Origin: an uncultured candidate division WWE3 bacterium
GTDB taxonomy: Bacteria; Patescibacteriota; WWE3; UBA101185; UBA10185
Reading direction: 5' to 3'
Length of the DNA stretch: 64,000 nucleotides
NCBI GenBank assembly: GCA_963765125.1
Contig: CAVXUZ010000004.1
Coordinates: 192,792-256,791 of the forward strand
This document shows, piece by piece, positions 10,640 to 31,208 of this stretch (position 1 is its first letter; each line of letters opens with the position of its first letter). The notes beneath the pieces were generated by a model. The model saw nothing but the letters and a program-made list of their open reading frames with translations, did no database searches and had not been told where the DNA came from. The position numbers and the translations under genes were made by a program.

Positions 10640-13600
10640 ATGAAAAAAAGATTTAGTCCCTCAACAATTAAAATATTTTTTGTTGCGTTTATCGCAGCAG
10701 GCCTATTCGTAGCAGGTTCTATTGGAGGTGGAGGAAAACCTCTTCAATCACCAACCCAAAACACCAGTGGTGGGGGTTCTCAATCTACACAAGAAGAATC
10801 GCAAGAAGTAGCGGCCGAAGAAGAAGATGAATACATACGTGTGGGAAATGAAGTTTGTGAAATGAGGGGAGATGAGCTTGTAATAAAAGACACTTATTGC
10901 CCGTGTCCGACAGACCCAGCTCTAGCTTCAGTGTGTGGTTATGTAAGTAGCGCAAACATTTTAGGTGAGCAGATGGAAAATAGCGACAAGACTATTTACT
11001 CCACAAGAAAACCTATTTCTGACGCTACGGTTGCAATTTACGAAAACGATCCCTACGCACCGACAGGAAAGCCTTTTGGTAATTTAGAAAAGAAACTTGT
11101 TGAGTGTCAAACTTCAGAAAAAGAAGGTAAATACCATTGTTATATGAGAAGAATTACCCCAGGGACTGCAGCATATGTTATTTTTGCGTGTTCTGGGATG
11201 GTTGCAGACATCAAAATTATTAGCTCGGGTAGAAGTATTACAACGCTGGATTCAGATGTTGATTGTGGAGAAGATCAAAATCACACGCACCTTCCCGATA
11301 TTTTAGACTACGTAAACAGAGATCAGTTTTTAGGTTGTTTATCGTCTGAAGATAATGTGCCCAACAAAGCAGTTGGCTATGAAGACCAGCAGGAAATCTT
11401 TTTCTCCGCAAATATTGGTGAATTAGGCGATCAGGGTAACCACACAGGTGACATTAGATTTACACCATTTGAGGGTATTAGTGGGGGTGGGGGTGTGCAT
11501 CCTGGAGGTTTTGTAGAAAACGATTGTTTGATTGAAAGTTTTAAGGATCTTGAAAGAATATACATTAAAAATATTCCTAGTATTTTCGTGCCAACTGAAA
11601 TTACAACCAAATACTCCTCTATTTACCAAAAATGTAATTACAACCCCACGAGAGATAATTTGGTTGAGAATTCGGCGATGGTCGATACAGACGAAAGAAC
11701 AACACCCTTTAGATACGATATTCCAACATTTCTTTCTGAGAGCGTAACACAGCAAATAAGAGTTTGGGAGTCTAGAACCAGTTTACAAAGAGTAAATGAG
11801 TGGCCTTTCGGTCCTCAACAGTTTTTGCACGCTATGTTTGGTGAGTGTTCAATGATTACGCAGTCACGTTACTATGGAGATGACACCAACGCCCCGCCAG
11901 TTTCGTGCGAAGTGTTTAAACTATGCAATTCCGTCGGGTCAGATCCTTTTATAAACATTTCAACGGGAAATAGTTTAGGTGCGATGCTAGAAAATCCATC
12001 AACCTATTACGAAATGGCAAAGGTGCAAGAAAGAGATAAGAAAGACATCGTGTGCCTCGATAAAAAGGGAAATGAAATAGCACTAAAAGATATTCAACCC
12101 CCTTGGGATAACACGTGTGATCAAAATGGCGGTGGTTGCAGTTACAAATTAGGAAAAGAGTATTTTGCACCACAACTGCTTTTAGCCGCGCAGGGGGCTA
12201 GGGTTGATTACAAAACTGACACATTTAACGATGCTTATGGAATAGAGGTTGAGACTGGAAGAGAAAACATTTGGGAATTGGCAAAGACAGAGGCAAAATT
12301 TCCACATTCTACTGGAGACTATGTTAACTACGAAGTACCAGAAAAATCAAAAGAACAAAACTCAGCTGTATCTGCAATCAGAGTTGCCACCGATGGTTCT
12401 GCCTCGGGGCTAACTACTGTTCGCGGCGTACTCGCAAATAAACTTGTTTCACCTGTAGACGCACAAAGAGGAACATATCAATACACCTATGACCACACCG
12501 TATACGATGTAAACGGAAACGTGGAAAGTCTATGTACGATGTCTGCAATTAACGGCGGTCCGTACGCCGCCCCCATAGTTAGAAACAAGGATCAAGAGGC
12601 CGCACTTCTAATAAGCAATTTTTTTGTTGGTGATGCAGCAGACCATCGAGCAAGCGAGACCGCCGGTGTAGCCACATACGCAACAGAGTTTGGTAGAGCG
12701 CGTGACGTAGATATGCAACAAAGCTTTTTTTGGCGCGACACGTTTGATTCAGTTCAACGTTATAGAATTGGTAGTGGTGGGGGTGAAGGCACAATGCCTT
12801 TTGACGAAGCTTGGGACAAAATTTACGGATTTATTGGTCTTTTTTCTGCAAGCAGGGGCGTACCCTATAAATCATATGCGAATAGATCTGGTGAATGGAA
12901 TCCTGATACCCCGTCATACATGTTTGTTGACTACTGTATTGCTGAGGAGAATTTTAATGATTACTTTCCAGCATACGGACAGGCAGGCTATCCTGGTAGT
13001 TACGATGGGTGCTATGACTGGAACGAAGTGGCTCACGCCAAATACTGCAATAGTTGGCCCGGTGTTGAGGGGGATTGGCCTAACGGTTGTGGAGGTACGT
13101 CACTTCCAGCAGGCTACGAATGTCCTTTTGGCAACACTTGGCCGGGAATCGAAGGCGAGCTGAGAACTTGCAAACAGGAACCAGAAGATGAGTGTATGGT
13201 TATGTCGATGGAGATAAGGTGCAAGGAAAAGATTCCAGTAAACGGAATGCCGGGTGTTTACTACTGTGTAAACGACAAAACCGAGACCGTAAAAGATTAC
13301 AGATCTTGCACACCAGATGATAGAAAAGCTTGTTTAGAGTTACAGCAAGACGGGTATGATCATTGGAGGCTCCAAAATGAACTTGGGTACGGGTGGGATT
13401 ACTTATCAAAAGAGTTAGCAAAAAAAGGATTACCAAAAGCTCCAAAATACAAACCCGTAAAAGCAACGCTTTACGCCTGCAGTCTTAAAAAAGCAGGCCC
13501 AATGGTAGCCCCAGGAAAAATATTTAAAGATCACGCAGCACGAACAAGACAAGACGCTCTTCACGAAGAGCAAGTTAATGCCGATGCAATGCTTGACGTA

Positions 13601-14593: not shown

Positions 14594-15058
14594 GTGTCCA
14601 TGCTTTTAGCAAAAAATAAAAAAGCTCTCTTCAACAACGAGATCATAGAAAAATATATCGCCGGAATTGTACTTACTGGCTATGAAGTTAAAGCTATTCG
14701 TGAGGGCAACGTAAATTTTGAAGGTGCTTACGTGACTATTCTTGATAGTGAGCCATACGTTGTAGGTTTGACGGTTGGTAAGTATTCAAAGCAAAGCCAA
14801 GATACTAGCGCTCAGGAGGCAAAGAAAAGTCGTAAGTTACTCTTAAAGTCCGCAGAGATCACAAAAATACAAAAAGAGCTGGCTGAAAAAGGTAAATCGG
14901 CAATCCCGCTGGCGTTAATACTGCAAAATAACTTAATCAAACTCGAACTCGCCACCGTAAAGGGTAGAAAAAAGCATGAGAAAAAACAGCTGTTAAAAGA
15001 TAGACAAGTCGTGATAGACCTTGCAAAATCAAGAAAAACTGAGGGTGTCTACTACTAA
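14594..15058 (+). CDS. smpB: SsrA-binding protein SmpB
   Basis: 154 aa with the SmpB pattern GIVLTGYEVKAIREGNVNFEGAYV...KSRKLLLKSAEITKIQ...IPLALILQNNLIKLELATVKGRKKHEKK. tmRNA follows immediately. Confidence 0.85.
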   Translation: MSMLLAKNKKALFNNEIIEKYIAGIVLTGYEVKAIREGNVNFEGAYVTILDSEPYVVGLTVGKYSKQSQDTSAQEAKKSRKLLLKSAEITKIQKELAEKGKSAIPLALILQNNLIKLELATVKGRKKHEKKQLLKDRQVVIDLAKSRKTEGVYY

Positions 15059-15115: not shown

Positions 15116-15519
15116 GGGGATGACCAGGATTTGATTGAGGGTAAAAACTATGAGAGCAAGCCGAAGTGATAGGATCTTCGAAAAAAATCTATCAAAAAAT
15201 AAGTGCTGATGAATTCGCATTCCAGCCAGCATACGCTTACGCTTAAGTAAGCATATGTGTCGGGGGACTTTAGGTAAATCCTAAATACTCTGAGGTTCTG
15301 CATTTACTCACCTGAAGGATTTGCAAGAGCATAATAAAATCAGGTTACAGAGCGTTTGTACGTTGACTACTACAGCGCTGTCACCGAAAGGAAATGTCTT
15401 AGGAAAAGATTAACGGTTTGTGAAACACCCTACTTTTCTGAATTAAGATTTCACTAAGCTTGTAAACTTTTGTAATTCGAGCTTTCAAGACGGGGGTTCG
15501 ATTCCCCCCATCTCCACCA
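15116..15519 (+). ncRNA. ssrA: tmRNA (ssrA)
   Basis: 5' GGGGAUGACCAGGAUUUGAUUGAGGG (compare E. coli GGGGCUGAUUCUGGAUUCGACGGG). 3' GACGGGGGTTCGATTCCCCCCATCTCCACCA gives a T-arm plus acceptor with a G3:U70 pair and encoded CCA. Internal tag ORF 15205..15243 (GCT GAT GAA TTC GCA TTC CAG CCA GCA TAC GCT TAC GCT TAA, ADEFAFQPAYAYA*). Sits directly downstream of smpB. Confidence 0.75.
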
Positions 15520-15556: not shown

Positions 15557-15661
15557 TCTTATGGAAAGGAATCGAAAGCCGCAGGCACGACGGTGCCGAG
15601 GCGGGGTCGACGGGCGAGCCAGCAGGCGAGAACCGGTGACCGATTCCCCCCATCTCCACCA
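15557..15661 (+). repeat. tmRNA-associated 3'-end-duplicating element
   Basis: Contains antisense T-loop segment GGAATCG (15568-15574), GC-rich core GGGGTCGACGGGCGAGCCAGCAGGCGAGAACCGGTGACC, then an exact 21-nt copy (15641-15661) of the tmRNA 3' end CGATTCCCCCCATCTCCACCA (original at 15499-15519). Confidence 0.45.
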
Positions 15662-15812
15662 AGGAAAAAAGGCGAGTGCTAGCAAAGTACGCGCCTTTTT
15701 TTCTTTATGACTGGGAGAGTTAAATCTCATACGCCGTCACAGTCCGTTAGCACTCTTGTTTTAATAGCCCCCTACTTATTTAATAACTAACAGCGCGCAA
15801 ATAAAATAATTT

Positions 15813-15908
15813 TGGTGGTGGAGGATATCGCCTGTCGGTACAGAATCTTGTTTGATAAGCAGAGAGTCGGAAACGATTGAGGTTCAACTCCTTTATCCTC
15901 CGCCACCA
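15813..15908 (+). other. 96-nt long hairpin with tRNA-like T-loop and CCA end (pseudo-tRNA or related 3'-end element)
   Basis: 15-bp terminal stem TGGTGGTGGAGGATA/TATCCTCCGCCACCA with one G-U pair. Interior has a TCG-GAAA-CGA tetraloop hairpin and a T-arm-like GAGG-TTCAACT-CCTT. The 3' end resembles the tRNA-Ser 3' ends in this window. No acceptable anticodon arm could be folded. Confidence 0.3.
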
Positions 15909-16227
15909 TTAAGAAATAAGCGATTAAAATTTACTTGCAAAAATATTTTTGTTAGAATTGCGGTAGCTTATCAAACAGAGTGAGCGAAAGCTCCAGTATT
16001 TGTAGAAAACCCTTCGAGAGAGGGGTTTTCTCGTTTACGTTGATGTATTTCACAATAACCTACAGCAGCTTACTAAAGTAATAACTGGCGCGCATTGTTA
16101 ACCAATAACCTTCCAATTTCCACTAAAGTATTATTTATTTTGGAGTTTTTGTATTTCTTGTTTAAGGCGTGCCATCTCTAACTCTCTATCTACCATAAAC
16201 ATTTCTAAGTTTGTTGATAATTTAGCC

Positions 16228-16671
16228 GTGCCCTTGCAATTAGTAGCAAACAGAAATAAATCAAAAGTTGTTATTGAGTCTGTAGATCAAAATATAGAAA
16301 TTACAACAGACCAAGAAAAAATATCAGAAGTAATTTATAACCTCGTAGACAACGCAGTAAAGTATGGAAAAGAGGAACAGACCATTACTGTAAGTGTTAC
16401 ATCTGATGCAAATCAAAACGTAACATTTTCAGTTAGAGACCAGGGTAAAGGCATAACAGATGATAAAATCTCTAAGTTATTTGGAAAATTTTCACAACTA
16501 GAACCCTCGCTAAGAAGATCGCAGGATGGGACAGGTCTCGGCCTTTACATATGTAAATTAATAGTTGAAAAGTTAGGAGGAAAAATAGATGTTGAAAGTG
16601 AAATAGGCAGAGGATCGAGATTTTTCTTCACACTTCCCCGCGAATTTTCAGGCGACGAAGCAACGTTATAG
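16228..16671 (+). pseudogene. histidine kinase C-terminal HATPase_c fragment (no HisKA/sensor; GTG start)
   Basis: 147 aa with the N-box NLVDNAVKYG and G-boxes DQGKGI and GTGLGLYICKLIVEKLGG. The upstream in-frame region is open for only 42 codons from a TAA, with no Met and no HisKA domain. Confidence 0.55.
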
Positions 16672-18009: not shown

Positions 18010-18780
18010 ATGGTTAAAGACGTGATTTTTAAAATCTACAATTACTTGATAAATACAGCGTTTTCAGAGCCTAGGAATTATAAAGTGATGTCAGGGCCGA
18101 TTAAAGACACATTTATCTGTCTTGCGCCGCGTCACGGTATAAAAAAGATTCTCGGTAGCTATGAGCCTGAGATTGTTAATTTAATGACGCAAAAGATTGG
18201 GGTTGGTGATGCTTGCATCGATGTTGGCGCGCACGTGGGGTATATAACGATGGTAATGCGTAAACTGGTCGGTGTGGAAGGCGAAGTTTACGCATTTGAG
18301 CCGATTAAAGAAAACTGTGAGTGCATTGAAAGGTCGGTTGTAAAAAACAATTATAAGAACGTTACAGTATTAAACTACGGTCTTGGAGAGAAAAACCAAG
18401 AGATGAGCGCCCACGTTTTTAATGATAGTAATATGGTGAATTTCTCTGATTCTGGGTTTAAAAATTATAGTGATGACAAAAACAGCGATACGTTCATTGT
18501 TAAAACTCTAGATAGCGTAGACGAGATCGTCGGACTACAGCGTCTTAATTTTATAAAAATCGATGCTGAGGGGTATGAAAGCAAGATTATTGAGGGCGCA
18601 CGGGGCGTTTTGCAAAGGTTTGGCCCTAAACTACTAATAGAGGTACATAATGCAGATAATTTTAATAAACTAAAAACCCTGCTTCCAGAAATTGGCTACT
18701 CGCTTTTTGACCTTCACGGCGTTCAGATTAAGAGCGACGCGTCCTTTGAAGGCATAATTCACATCCTCGCAACAAAATAA
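18010..18780 (+). CDS. FkbM-family SAM-dependent methyltransferase (divergent paralog)
   Basis: 256 aa with CIDVGAHVGY and KIDAEGYESKII. Confidence 0.7.
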   Translation: MVKDVIFKIYNYLINTAFSEPRNYKVMSGPIKDTFICLAPRHGIKKILGSYEPEIVNLMTQKIGVGDACIDVGAHVGYITMVMRKLVGVEGEVYAFEPIKENCECIERSVVKNNYKNVTVLNYGLGEKNQEMSAHVFNDSNMVNFSDSGFKNYSDDKNSDTFIVKTLDSVDEIVGLQRLNFIKIDAEGYESKIIEGARGVLQRFGPKLLIEVHNADNFNKLKTLLPEIGYSLFDLHGVQIKSDASFEGIIHILATK

Positions 18781-18918
18781 TCCCTAGTAATAATAGAATG
18801 CTGGGCCTAGTTTTTGCCAGCGCACTACTTATAATATAGGTTAGTTTGTAGGCGCCACTACAGGCTACGAGCCTAGTTATAGCTGTAGCAACAGTAAATA
18901 GAAAATTGTGGATAAACC

Positions 18919-19694: not shown

Positions 19695-19781
19695 GGAGGG
19701 TTGGCAGAGTGGTAATGCAACGGCTTGCTAAGCCGCGACCGTGAAAACGGTCCGTGGGTTCAAATCCCGCACCCTCCGCCA
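19695..19781 (+). tRNA. tRNA-Ser (anticodon GCT), type II with long variable arm, CCA encoded
   Basis: Acceptor GGAGGGT/ACCCTCC, anticodon loop TTGCTAA, variable hairpin CCGTGAAAACGG, T-arm GTGGG-TTCAAAT-CCCGC. No downstream 3'-end duplicate. Confidence 0.8.
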
Positions 19782-19788
19782 CCAACAA

Positions 19789-19820
19789 AGTCGTCCAGCA
19801 ATTTATGTTGGACTTTTTTT
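19789..19820 (+). terminator. terminator after tRNA-Ser(GCT)
   Basis: GTCCAGCAATTTATGTTGGAC hairpin followed by T8. Confidence 0.5.
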
Positions 19821-19908
19821 GTTGCTGATGTAACGCTGTGTTGGGATTTGAGCGGTACGCCTCACACTCACCCGCCCTTTAATCAGCACCGTATGCTAGT
19901 ATCTTAAT

Positions 19909-22010: not shown

Positions 22011-22156
22011 GGAAATTGTGTATGTGCCAAAGGCACATAAGCAGTTTCCTTGTGAGTCGTAAGGACTTGAATGGCGCAGGCGCGGCGGCGCCGAGTCGGG
22101 GTCGACAGGCGCATCAGCAGATGCGAACTGGTGACCAAGTCCCTCCGGGTGCGCCA
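22011..22156 (+). repeat. tRNA-Arg-associated 3'-end-duplicating element
   Basis: Hairpin TGTGCCAAAGGCACA, antisense T-loop GGACTTG (22063-22069), core GGGGTCGACAGGCGCATCAGCAGATGCGAACTGGTGACC, then an exact 21-nt copy (22136-22156) of the tRNA 3' end CAAGTCCCTCCGGGTGCGCCA (original at 21990-22010). Confidence 0.45.
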
Positions 22157-24800: not shown

Positions 24801-24964
24801 GTGGAAAAGCGAAAAGTGTAGTTTAATACTTTTCGCTTTTTCATTTGTGAAAAGGATGAGAACTCTGCGTTAGCAGGGGACGACAATTGATACTATAGTG
24901 AGCTTGTGAACTATAGAGCAATTGGTAGCGAACAAAGTGAGCGTTCATCCCACCTCCTCCGCCA
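24801..24964 (+). repeat. tRNA-Ser(CGA)-associated 3'-end-duplicating element (variant without the GGGGTCGAC core)
   Basis: A 49-nt terminator block (24801-24849) nearly identical to the one after tRNA-Ser(GGA) at 31012-31060. Then a bulged antisense segment AGGATGAGAAC, an ACTATAG direct repeat, TAGCGAACAAAGTG and an exact 18-nt copy (24947-24964) of the tRNA 3' end ATCCCACCTCCTCCGCCA. Confidence 0.4.
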
Positions 24965-31011: not shown

Positions 31012-31086
31012 GTGGAAAAGCGAAAAGTGTAGTTTATACTTTTCGCTTTTTCATTTGTGTGAAGGGGATTCGAATAGCGGACTGAG
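31012..31086 (+). repeat. tRNA-Ser(GGA)-associated 3'-end-duplicating element (composite)
   Basis: Shared 49-nt terminator block, antisense T-loop GGATTCG (31066-31072), core GGGGTCGACGGGCGCATCAGCAGATGCGAACCGGTGACC and CGAATCC (31140-31146). Then a 25-nt insert containing TAGCGAACGAAGTG, followed by an exact 15-nt copy (31072-31086) of the tRNA 3' end CCCCTCCCTCCGCCA. Confidence 0.45.
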
Positions 31087-31208
31087 CGAAGCGAAGGAGC
31101 TGGGGTCGACGGGCGCATCAGCAGATGCGAACCGGTGACCGAATCCTGCACAAAACTTAGCGAACGAAGTGCCCCTCCCTCCGCCATAACCAAGCGTATA
31201 ATTAAAAA

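Follow-up and report, generated by a model that had tools for sequence, protein, structure and literature searches.

The genes on record that most resemble, in architecture, the element considered here are the allo-tRNAs, false positives resembling selenocysteine tRNA (tRNA-Sec) that have an 8/4 or 9/3 division of the acceptor and T stems, a long variable arm, a D arm with a tetraloop, G73 or U73, and anticodons that mostly belong to amino acids other than serine (Mukai et al. 2017, Nucleic Acids Res 45:2776, PMC5389517). Well-formed members are charged with serine in Escherichia coli, and 8/4 members with leucine anticodons inserted serine and were toxic in that host; the commonest group, which has the isoleucine anticodon UAU, carries stem-destabilizing changes and is inactive in translation (PMC5389517). 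Their genes are found near toxin-antitoxin loci and have been reported from Clostridia, Proteobacteria, and Acidobacteria (PMC5389517). Here, we compare with these systems a 96-nucleotide (nt) hairpin at positions 15813-15908 of a 64,000-nt stretch of DNA, hereafter the window, from an uncultured bacterium of candidate division WWE3 (assembly GCA_963765125.1, contig CAVXUZ010000004.1, positions 192,792 to 256,791 of the forward strand).

In our judgment, the hairpin is probably, with real room for doubt, a pseudo-tRNA that derives from a serine tRNA and is built like an allo-tRNA, being either a relic or a tRNA-like RNA that does not decode. We regard it as an irregular tRNA of an already described sort (allo-tRNA-like or pseudo-tRNA), not as a new class of RNA.

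Architecture of the hairpin and its kinship with serine tRNAs

Judged from its sequence and predicted fold, the hairpin combines three defining features of allo-tRNAs: an 8/4 branch, a long variable arm, and G73. It also shares with them the 12-bp total length of that branch, the tetraloop in the D arm, and a tRNA-Ser-like identity joined to a non-serine anticodon, and its destabilized, irregular stems and isoleucine anticodon recall the UAU group in particular. The likeness considered here is one of architecture, and there are differences. The hairpin comes from a WWE3 host, apparently arose locally from the host's tRNA-Ser(GCU), and has a leader that pairs with its CCA end; its D stem has 4 standard pairs where allo-tRNAs have about 6 bp. 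The anticodon stem, 6 bp in allo-tRNAs, can be drawn here in two ways (see below).

The sequence-only reading that drew attention to this element described a GAAA tetraloop hairpin and a T-loop arm, both of which are present (Table 1), and held that no anticodon or D arm could be folded. That last statement has to be withdrawn, given that positions 15820-15905 can be drawn as a class II cloverleaf of the noncanonical 8/4 type by two routes, albeit with both arms weak. At 90% of its default threshold, ARAGORN reported a tRNA-Ile(GAU) with a full cloverleaf across 15820-15905, and the Rfam tRNA-Sec model (RF01852) aligned along its full length to 15819-15902 with 28.3 bits against a cut-off of 47 (E = 0.001 in a 351-nt search), outscoring the sole other match from the tRNA clan (CL00001) at the hairpin. 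We assigned the branch as 8/4 and not 7/5 because a fifth T pair would be U-U, while the eighth acceptor pair (A-U) forms. In the D stem, 4 of 6 positions are standard pairs, flanked by G.A and C.A mismatches, and the predicted stability is low; the anticodon stem is likewise weak: the RF01852 alignment gives it 5 pairs and a bulged U, and the ARAGORN drawing gives it 6 positions, one being C.A and three being G.U. The elements that would form the tRNA elbow, GG in the D loop and UUC in the T loop, are kept.

Table 1. Features of the hairpin locus and of the tRNA-adjacent elements (window positions unless a locus is named)
Feature	Position	Strand	Remarks
smpB	14594-15058		Anchor for fetching related loci
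tmRNA gene	15116-15519		404 nt; hairpin lies 294 nt downstream
Promoter-like site, TTAATA, 16 nt, TAAAAT	15780-15807	+	Weak consensus match
Leader UGGUGGU, 7 nt	15813-15819	+	Pairs with G73-CCA-CCA (15902-15908), lengthening the acceptor helix to 15 bp
Acceptor, 5' strand, GGAGGAUA	15820-15827	+	8 standard pairs with 15894-15901; two linker bases follow
D arm CUGU/ACAG, tetraloop CGGU	15832-15843	+	From RF01852 alignment and ARAGORN drawing
Anticodon arm UC(U)UGU/GCAGA, loop UUGAUAA	15846-15863	+	U33, A37; anticodon GAU at 15854-15856
Long variable arm AGUCG-GAAA-CGAUU	15865-15878	+	5 bp, GNRA tetraloop; pair probability 0.79-0.94
T arm GAGG-UUCAACU-CCUU	15879-15893	+	4-bp stem including one G.U
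Acceptor, 3' strand, UAUCCUCC	15894-15901	+	Followed by G73 (15902), CCA (15903-15905), and second CCA (15906-15908), all paired
Possible partner unit	15930-16035	+	Extended -10 promoter-like site (15930-15958), small GAAA hairpin, terminator-like hairpin (16004-16031)
Truncated histidine kinase	16098-16671		HATPase_c domain only; frame open upstream to about 16100, no start codon or H-box
Type A elements, window	15564-15661, 22059-22156, 31062-31160		Tail of the last to 31185
Type A elements, other loci	L011, L012, L014, L029, L033, L035, L046 (CP006914), L047, L049, L082
Type B sites	24850-24964, 31140-31185; L046 ~18700-18790, ~19760-19850; L049 ~12990-13080

tRNA-Sec is the best-scoring Rfam model at this position, and it has the extended acceptor and long variable arm of the hairpin in common. 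It differs in carrying the anticodon UCA and a branch that is commonly 8/5 in bacteria, whereas the hairpin has GAU and 8/4 and falls 19 bits under the model's cut-off. The CGGU tetraloop of the D arm also occurs in E. coli selC. Neither Sec nor Ro machinery was seen among the portion of the window's proteins that we scanned.

The sequence itself points toward serine tRNAs. In global alignment the hairpin is 67% identical to the window's tRNA-Ser(GCU) gene (19695-19784); the figure is 60-61% for the two remaining tRNA-Ser genes and 53-56% for the tRNA-Arg and tRNA-Ala genes. Among themselves, the three genuine tRNA-Ser genes share 63-73% identity. The first 5 acceptor bp (GGAGG/CCUCC) are the same in the hairpin and all three of these genes, and the anticodon loop differs from that of tRNA-Ser(GCU) by the single change C35A (UUGAUAA versus UUGCUAA). 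At the 3' end, the identity between the 28 nt from 15881 and positions 19757-19784 of tRNA-Ser(GCU) is 82%. The acceptor, T, and variable stems depart from those of tRNA-Ser(GCU) at many positions and nevertheless stay paired, several of the changes affecting both partners of a pair (e.g., G6-C67 to A-U, G51-C63 to A-U, and U50.G64 to G.U).

The two genes share the discriminator, the ending GCCACCA (19778-19784 in tRNA-Ser(GCU)), a GAAA-type variable loop, and a T loop of the form UUCAAxU. They part in that tRNA-Ser(GCU) is 7/5 with the large D loop of class II, whereas the hairpin is 8/4 with a tetraloop D arm, AU-richer stems, the anticodon GAU, and the CCA-pairing leader, and goes undetected at default settings. 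The GC content of the hairpin is 49%, versus 59% for tRNA-Ser(GCU) and 59-64% for genuine tRNAs. The host's own tRNA-Ser(GCU) appears to be the closest relative of the hairpin, and on these comparisons the hairpin belongs to the serine class II lineage as a much-diverged paralogue, having drifted in its anticodon, D arm, and base composition. The comparison bears out the view that the element stands alone, is tRNA-like, and possesses an acceptor of the tRNA-Ser type together with CCA.

Outside the window, a gene that matches the 3' half of the hairpin with 80-82% identity is the tRNA-Ser(UGA) of T4-like Klebsiella phages (e.g., PV239574.1, L091 105-189). The phage gene resembles the hairpin in its GAAA variable loop, its T arm GAGGGUUCAACUCCUUU, its GCCA, and an acceptor that can be read as 8 bp; unlike the hairpin, it receives a normal ARAGORN call and has a serine anticodon, a normal D arm, and no pairing by its leader. 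Our searches of phage and plasmid collections returned nothing beyond this generic similarity to tRNA-Ser, the plasmid database giving no match, and pattern scans of viral contigs gave 0 matches for the hairpin pattern and 0 for the core of the type A elements described below.

A scan of Joint Genome Institute (JGI) metagenomes was more informative. The pattern was blind to structure and fixed only GGAGG, CGGT, TTGATAA, and GGTTCAA, so that loop identity between a match and the hairpin is there by design. It gave three matches, of which two (L089 and L090) lack stem complementarity and are chance hits. The only tRNA-like match, at 737-824 of locus L088 (contig Ga0213870_1008013, beside an rpsP-like gene), is a well-formed 8/4 class II tRNA-like gene that does not encode CCA. 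Its acceptor has 8 positions, one of them a U-U mismatch; the D stem is 6 bp long and the T stem 4 bp, a variable arm is present, and the loops read CGGU, UUGAUAA, and UUCAACU. The gene scores 39.9 bits with RF01852, again below the cut-off, receives no ARAGORN call, and folds spontaneously as a cloverleaf. Its leader includes GCGGAGG, which is complementary to CCUCCGC at the 3' end of the gene, and we found neither a coaxial leader helix nor a complementary neighbor. From this gene it is clear that the 8/4 architecture recurs and that tRNA-like genes of this kind, with a loop of the GAU type, occur elsewhere.

Terminal helix, leader, and neighboring unit

The hairpin is bounded by an inverted repeat with 15-nt arms, TGGTGGTGGAGGATA (15813-15827) and TATCCTCCGCCACCA (15894-15908), which are separated by 66 nt and are 93% complementary; on the + strand they make a terminal helix of 14 Watson-Crick pairs and one U.G. 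As RNA, the + strand folds at -41.4 kcal/mol, compared with a mean of -24.2 kcal/mol for 200 shuffles (z = -5.2, equaled by 0 of 200), and the - strand folds more weakly (-33.7 kcal/mol, z = -4.1). The 15-bp terminal stem pairing the CCA, as first proposed, is thus real. The accompanying proposal that the element follows a logic of antisense copy upstream and sense copy downstream fared less well, given that this is largely what any acceptor stem shows; what is left of it is the 7-nt leader.

That leader is exceptional. Seven of the 15 pairs in the helix lie beyond the normal acceptor stem and join the leader to G73, the CCA, and the second CCA. We surveyed the pairing of leaders with 3' ends in 136 ARAGORN-called tRNA genes from the window and 91 fetched loci, mostly of WWE3 or other candidate phyla radiation (CPR) origin, and found at most 3 consecutive pairs in any of them. 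In its 7-bp leader pairing, the hairpin is unlike the ordinary tRNA genes of its lineage.

A weak promoter of its own may drive such a capped tRNA-like RNA: with the promoter-like site upstream, transcription would begin within the first few bases of the hairpin, at about 15813-15815. The RNA, if made, would begin at or near 15813 and consist of a tRNA-like body capped by the 15-bp helix. In this primary transcript, the CCA end would be locked in the helix and could not be aminoacylated, and a chargeable 8/4 tRNA could arise only if RNase P took off the leader, with a cut at 15819/15820, 12 bp from the T loop. A tRNA released in this way would be expected to take serine by its identity elements and, through its anticodon GAU, to read AUC and AUU; the features kept in the sequence are those of the type used by seryl-tRNA synthetase (SerRS), namely the long variable arm, G73, and the GGAGG/CCUCC acceptor. 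We infer, however, that the RNA is not a regular decoder, because a serine-charged tRNA with GAU would mistranslate abundant isoleucine codons, the D and anticodon arms are marginal, the CCA is sequestered, and the locus is not conserved.

Downstream of the hairpin lies a unit of about 70 nt, running from a promoter-like site to a terminator-like hairpin, that may be part of the same feature. At its predicted 5' end, the 12-nt GCUUAUCAAACA (15966-15977) is the exact complement of hairpin positions 15849-15860 (UGUUUGAUAAGC), which take in the anticodon loop and the stem next to it. When about 19,500 random 400-nt stretches of the window were examined, none contained a 12-mer complementary to the interior of the hairpin, although a gapped local alignment test was less impressive (score 24, against a 99th percentile of 21 and a maximum of 26 for shuffles). 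Given how many features were looked at, we take the complement as suggestive only. The predicted layout of the unit, with a seed at the 5' end followed by a GAAA hairpin and then a terminator, would resemble that of a trans-acting small RNA. The idea that the unit is an inverted second copy of the gene was rejected, as the complementarity does not extend past the 12 nt.

Locus and alternative readings

The host belongs to the CPR group WWE3 (Katanobacteria), and the nearest relatives of its SmpB (51-67% identity) are found in WWE3 or Patescibacteria assemblies. We assembled 87 related loci, 80 of them anchored on SmpB from GTDB genomes and 7 being contigs of the closest SmpB relatives. In these relatives, the gene order smpB, transfer-messenger RNA (tmRNA), comF, tRNA-Ser(GCU), tRNA-Arg, tRNA-Ala, tRNA-Ser(CGA), tRNA-Ser(GGA) recurs. 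In the closest of them, L081 (67% SmpB identity), about 230 nt separate the tmRNA terminator from comF and the hairpin is absent, whereas the window has about 3.2 kb extra between tmRNA and comF, with a lower GC content. This extra region contains the hairpin, the small promoter-to-terminator unit, a histidine-kinase fragment, a 93-amino acid membrane protein, and two FkbM-type methyltransferases, and the truncation of the kinase beside the hairpin fits a rearrangement at this place. By this comparison, the islet that contains the hairpin, a short way downstream of the tmRNA gene, is strain specific and rearranged. A repeat-flanked island using a tmRNA or tRNA 3' end is not what we found: the sole tmRNA repeat is the type A element 142 nt away, and no copy of the hairpin's 3' end bounding the 3.2 kb was detected.

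We searched the 87 loci with a covariance model made from the single hairpin sequence and recovered no orthologue, only ordinary tRNA-Ser genes at about 15-30 bits. A BLAST search of the hairpin with its flanks against all loci gave just tRNA-Ser 3' ends and noise, and no further copy was seen in the window or the fetched loci.

How well, then, does the interpretation as a tRNA-Ser-derived pseudo-tRNA hold? Several observations weigh against it. All tRNA detectors stay below threshold at the hairpin, and the E-value of RF01852 becomes about 0.2 when rescaled to the 64-kb window. ViennaRNA prefers to merge the D and anticodon arms into one 12-bp, G.U-rich hairpin (-41.4 versus -36.6 kcal/mol for the cloverleaf, a difference of 4.8 kcal/mol), leaving the cloverleaf versions of these arms with a pair probability of about 0.02. 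The hairpin is an unconserved singleton among the 87 related loci. The promoter-like sites in the region are at chance level (4 found, 3.3 expected from shuffles), and the apparently compensatory changes relative to tRNA-Ser(GCU) could reflect a different, perhaps foreign, tRNA-Ser ancestry instead of selection after duplication. Finally, a near-perfect 15-bp helix and a 12-nt complement next door are hard to reconcile with passive decay and hint at a function, the terminal helix being the observation least compatible with a passive relic.

At default and 95% thresholds, ARAGORN made no tRNA call at the hairpin, and a search of the whole window at the Rfam gathering score gave no match there. 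With neither a bona fide tRNA call nor a significant Rfam match, only sub-threshold ones, the original designation of a pseudo-tRNA or unclassified tRNA-like RNA stands.

The main rival to this pseudo-tRNA interpretation, which we consider unlikely but by some way the best of the alternatives, is that the hairpin is an active allo-tRNA whose leader is trimmed by RNase P and which, once charged by SerRS, inserts serine at AUC and AUU or donates it to a nonribosomal process. In this rival, the leader lock and the neighboring antisense RNA would hold the tRNA in check, so that the two RNAs would make up a harmful tRNA and its antisense antidote. The retained serine identity features and canonical anticodon loop (U33, A37) speak for an active molecule, as do the intact acceptor, variable, and T stems, the GG of the D loop and UUC of the T loop, and the exceptional leader helix. 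The antidote would come from the downstream promoter-to-terminator unit, which has the exact 12-nt complement at its predicted 5' end, and there is a precedent in the published 8/4 allo-tRNAs with leucine anticodons, which insert serine, are toxic, and have genes near toxin-antitoxin loci (PMC5389517). On the other side stand the weak D and anticodon stems with their favored alternative fold, the sub-threshold detector scores, and the lack of conservation in relatives. In addition, no complementary partner accompanies the analogous gene in L088, the 12-mer is of modest significance when imperfect matches and repeated looks are taken into account, and isoleucine codons are abundant in an AT-rich genome, so that an expressed serine tRNA with GAU would be very costly.

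A more specific proposal, which we offer as a distinctly long shot, is a two-RNA module in the small islet beside tmRNA. It would consist of a serine-accepting tRNA with an isoleucine anticodon, kept inert by its CCA-locking leader, and of an adjacent RNA (about 15965-16035) serving as antidote, the 5' 12 nt of which would pair with the anticodon loop. On this equally tenuous proposal the pair would act as a device resembling a toxin-antitoxin system or triggering mistranslation under stress. Should the CCA-locking leader and the anticodon-complementary neighbor turn out to have a function, the hairpin would gain in importance, as a missense tRNA under regulation would represent a novel kind of control or toxin system.

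We think it very unlikely that the repeat acts at the level of DNA, whether by marking where a mobile element ends or by serving as a recombination site or terminator, with its likeness to tRNA either incidental or due to a captured 3' fragment. The setting invites the idea, given that the region is strain specific and rearranged and lies beside a tmRNA gene, a classic hot spot of integration, and that weak inverted (I2) and direct (D2) repeats flank it. Those repeats are 71-74% matches of a kind expected by chance, however, and the tRNA features run throughout the interior and not only at the 3' end. The stem's sole mismatch amounts to a G.U on the + strand, which is also the strand that folds better, and both points agree with RNA; no U-tract follows the stem, and there is no other copy in the window or loci.

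Still less probable is the suggestion, made in the sequence-only reading, that the hairpin is a free or transposed copy of the family of elements found after tmRNA, tRNA-Arg, and tRNA-Ser genes, here termed type A. The layouts look superficially alike, with a 5' segment complementary to part of a sense tRNA 3'-end copy that closes the element with CCA, and the two share a neighborhood: the hairpin is 150 nt downstream of the type A element at 15564-15661. Moreover, its 3' end resembles that of tRNA-Ser(GCU), whose own element seems largely deleted (about 19843-19870). Yet type A elements have a covarying, GC-rich three-way-junction core, pair only the T-loop region, leave the CCA tail free, and follow their cognate tRNA or tmRNA, whereas the hairpin has a whole tRNA body, a paired CCA, no GC-rich core, and no cognate gene upstream. 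Our covariance model of type A, built from 11 members and run on 1.33 Mb (the window plus the fetched loci), found 18 members and nothing at 15813-15908 at E <= 1, and the core motif occurs at only three sites in the window, all other than the hairpin.

Least probable of all is membership in another described family (a genuine tRNA-Sec, a signal recognition particle [SRP] RNA, or a bacterial Y RNA [YrlA]), given that tRNA-Sec, although the best Rfam match, is contradicted by the GAU anticodon and the 19-bit shortfall, and that SRP, YrlA, and others are absent from the Rfam matches even at E <= 10. The long terminal stem joined to a tRNA-like module presumably recalls YrlA, a resemblance checked through Rfam only. 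SRP RNA, which the sequence-only reading had likewise set aside, was dropped together with Y RNA and riboswitches, the sole meaningful Rfam match at E <= 10 in 15700-16050 being the sub-threshold tRNA-Sec.

If the hairpin is indeed an allo-tRNA-like pseudo-tRNA, then 8/4 genes of this sort would extend beyond Clostridia, Proteobacteria, and Acidobacteria, and they could emerge locally, by divergence of an ordinary tRNA-Ser, in a CPR bacterium with a minimal genome. The catalogue of irregular tRNAs would then grow slightly, and caution would be called for when tRNAs are annotated in CPR genomes.

tRNA-adjacent elements of WWE3 genomes

A by-product of this analysis, the type A family, is both more consequential and more surprising than the hairpin. 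Across the window and the loci, 23 tRNA or tmRNA genes, nearly all in WWE3-type loci, have a second copy of their 3' end downstream, when at most 1 mismatch is allowed in the last 14 nt. The distance is 124-481 nt, and for 20 of the genes it does not exceed 173 nt; in L051 there is a 24th match, which extends across an assembly gap. Most often the copy measures 21 nt and runs from C56 of the T loop through CCA.

Eleven members of type A align as a 98-nt unit with a consensus three-way junction in which 16 of 28 pairs show double changes. In the alignment of the 18 members found with the covariance model, 93.9% of cells are paired, compared with 27-36% when the partners are slid; both partners have changed in 19 of the 28 pairs, and none of 500 shuffles reached the observed covariation. 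The core reads GGCGCAGGC..GCCGAGCC, GGGGUCGAC..CAGCAG..GGUGACC, and its closing helix joins an antisense T-loop copy to the sense copy. The tail is unpaired and is an exact repeat, through CCA, of the last bases of the tRNA or tmRNA gene that precedes the element. On the tRNA-sense strand, a G.U pair is conserved. Elements of this type follow Ser, Arg, Ala, and tmRNA genes and are orthologous at tRNA-Arg(GCG) in at least 5 genomes. Type A is a conserved, strongly covarying, and widespread family of structured RNA, present in many WWE3 genomes.

Two of the three window copies were searched against Rfam, and they gave no match at E <= 10. On these grounds, and because their features misfit by inspection, we found no support for type A being domain V of a group II intron, a hammerhead or hepatitis delta virus (HDV)-like ribozyme, an integron attC site, or a guide RNA of the TnpB/Cas12 or TIGR type; the TIGR-Tas preprint mentions CPR but not tRNA.

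A second kind of element, type B, lacks the GC-rich core and has the motif GCGAAC(R)AAGUGAG directly before the sense tRNA 3'-end copy. In the element after the window's tRNA-Ser(GGA), a type A core and a type B module occur together. By eye, the type B motif resembles AACAGAGUGAGCG at 15966-15990, in the unit downstream of the hairpin.

Downstream of tRNA-Ser(GCU), at 19843-19870, all that is present is GGGATTTGA, a copy of the T loop in antisense, together with the opening bases of a type A core. The remainder, sense copy included, is missing here, whereas the orthologous tRNA-Ser(GCU) genes in L011 and L014 have complete elements, and the window's element has therefore probably decayed. At 14626-16909 of L029, the type A element of tRNA-Arg is 2.2 kb from its tRNA, and the intervening DNA, bounded by inverted repeats of about 100 bp, encodes an XRE-type helix-turn-helix protein, a 317-amino acid membrane protein, and a 154-amino acid protein, making a small insertion between tRNA and element.

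Two minor observations concern the tRNA and tmRNA genes themselves. The predicted tmRNA tag of the window, ADEFAFQPAYAYA, ends in AYA instead of the common ALAA, and the tags of relatives end otherwise (e.g., AMAYVNA and PAYAGALV). In L024 (11919-12006) and L015 (12181-12268), a canonical-looking class II tRNA-Ser(ACU) directly follows tRNA-Ser(GCU), and its A34 is unusual for the two-codon serine box.

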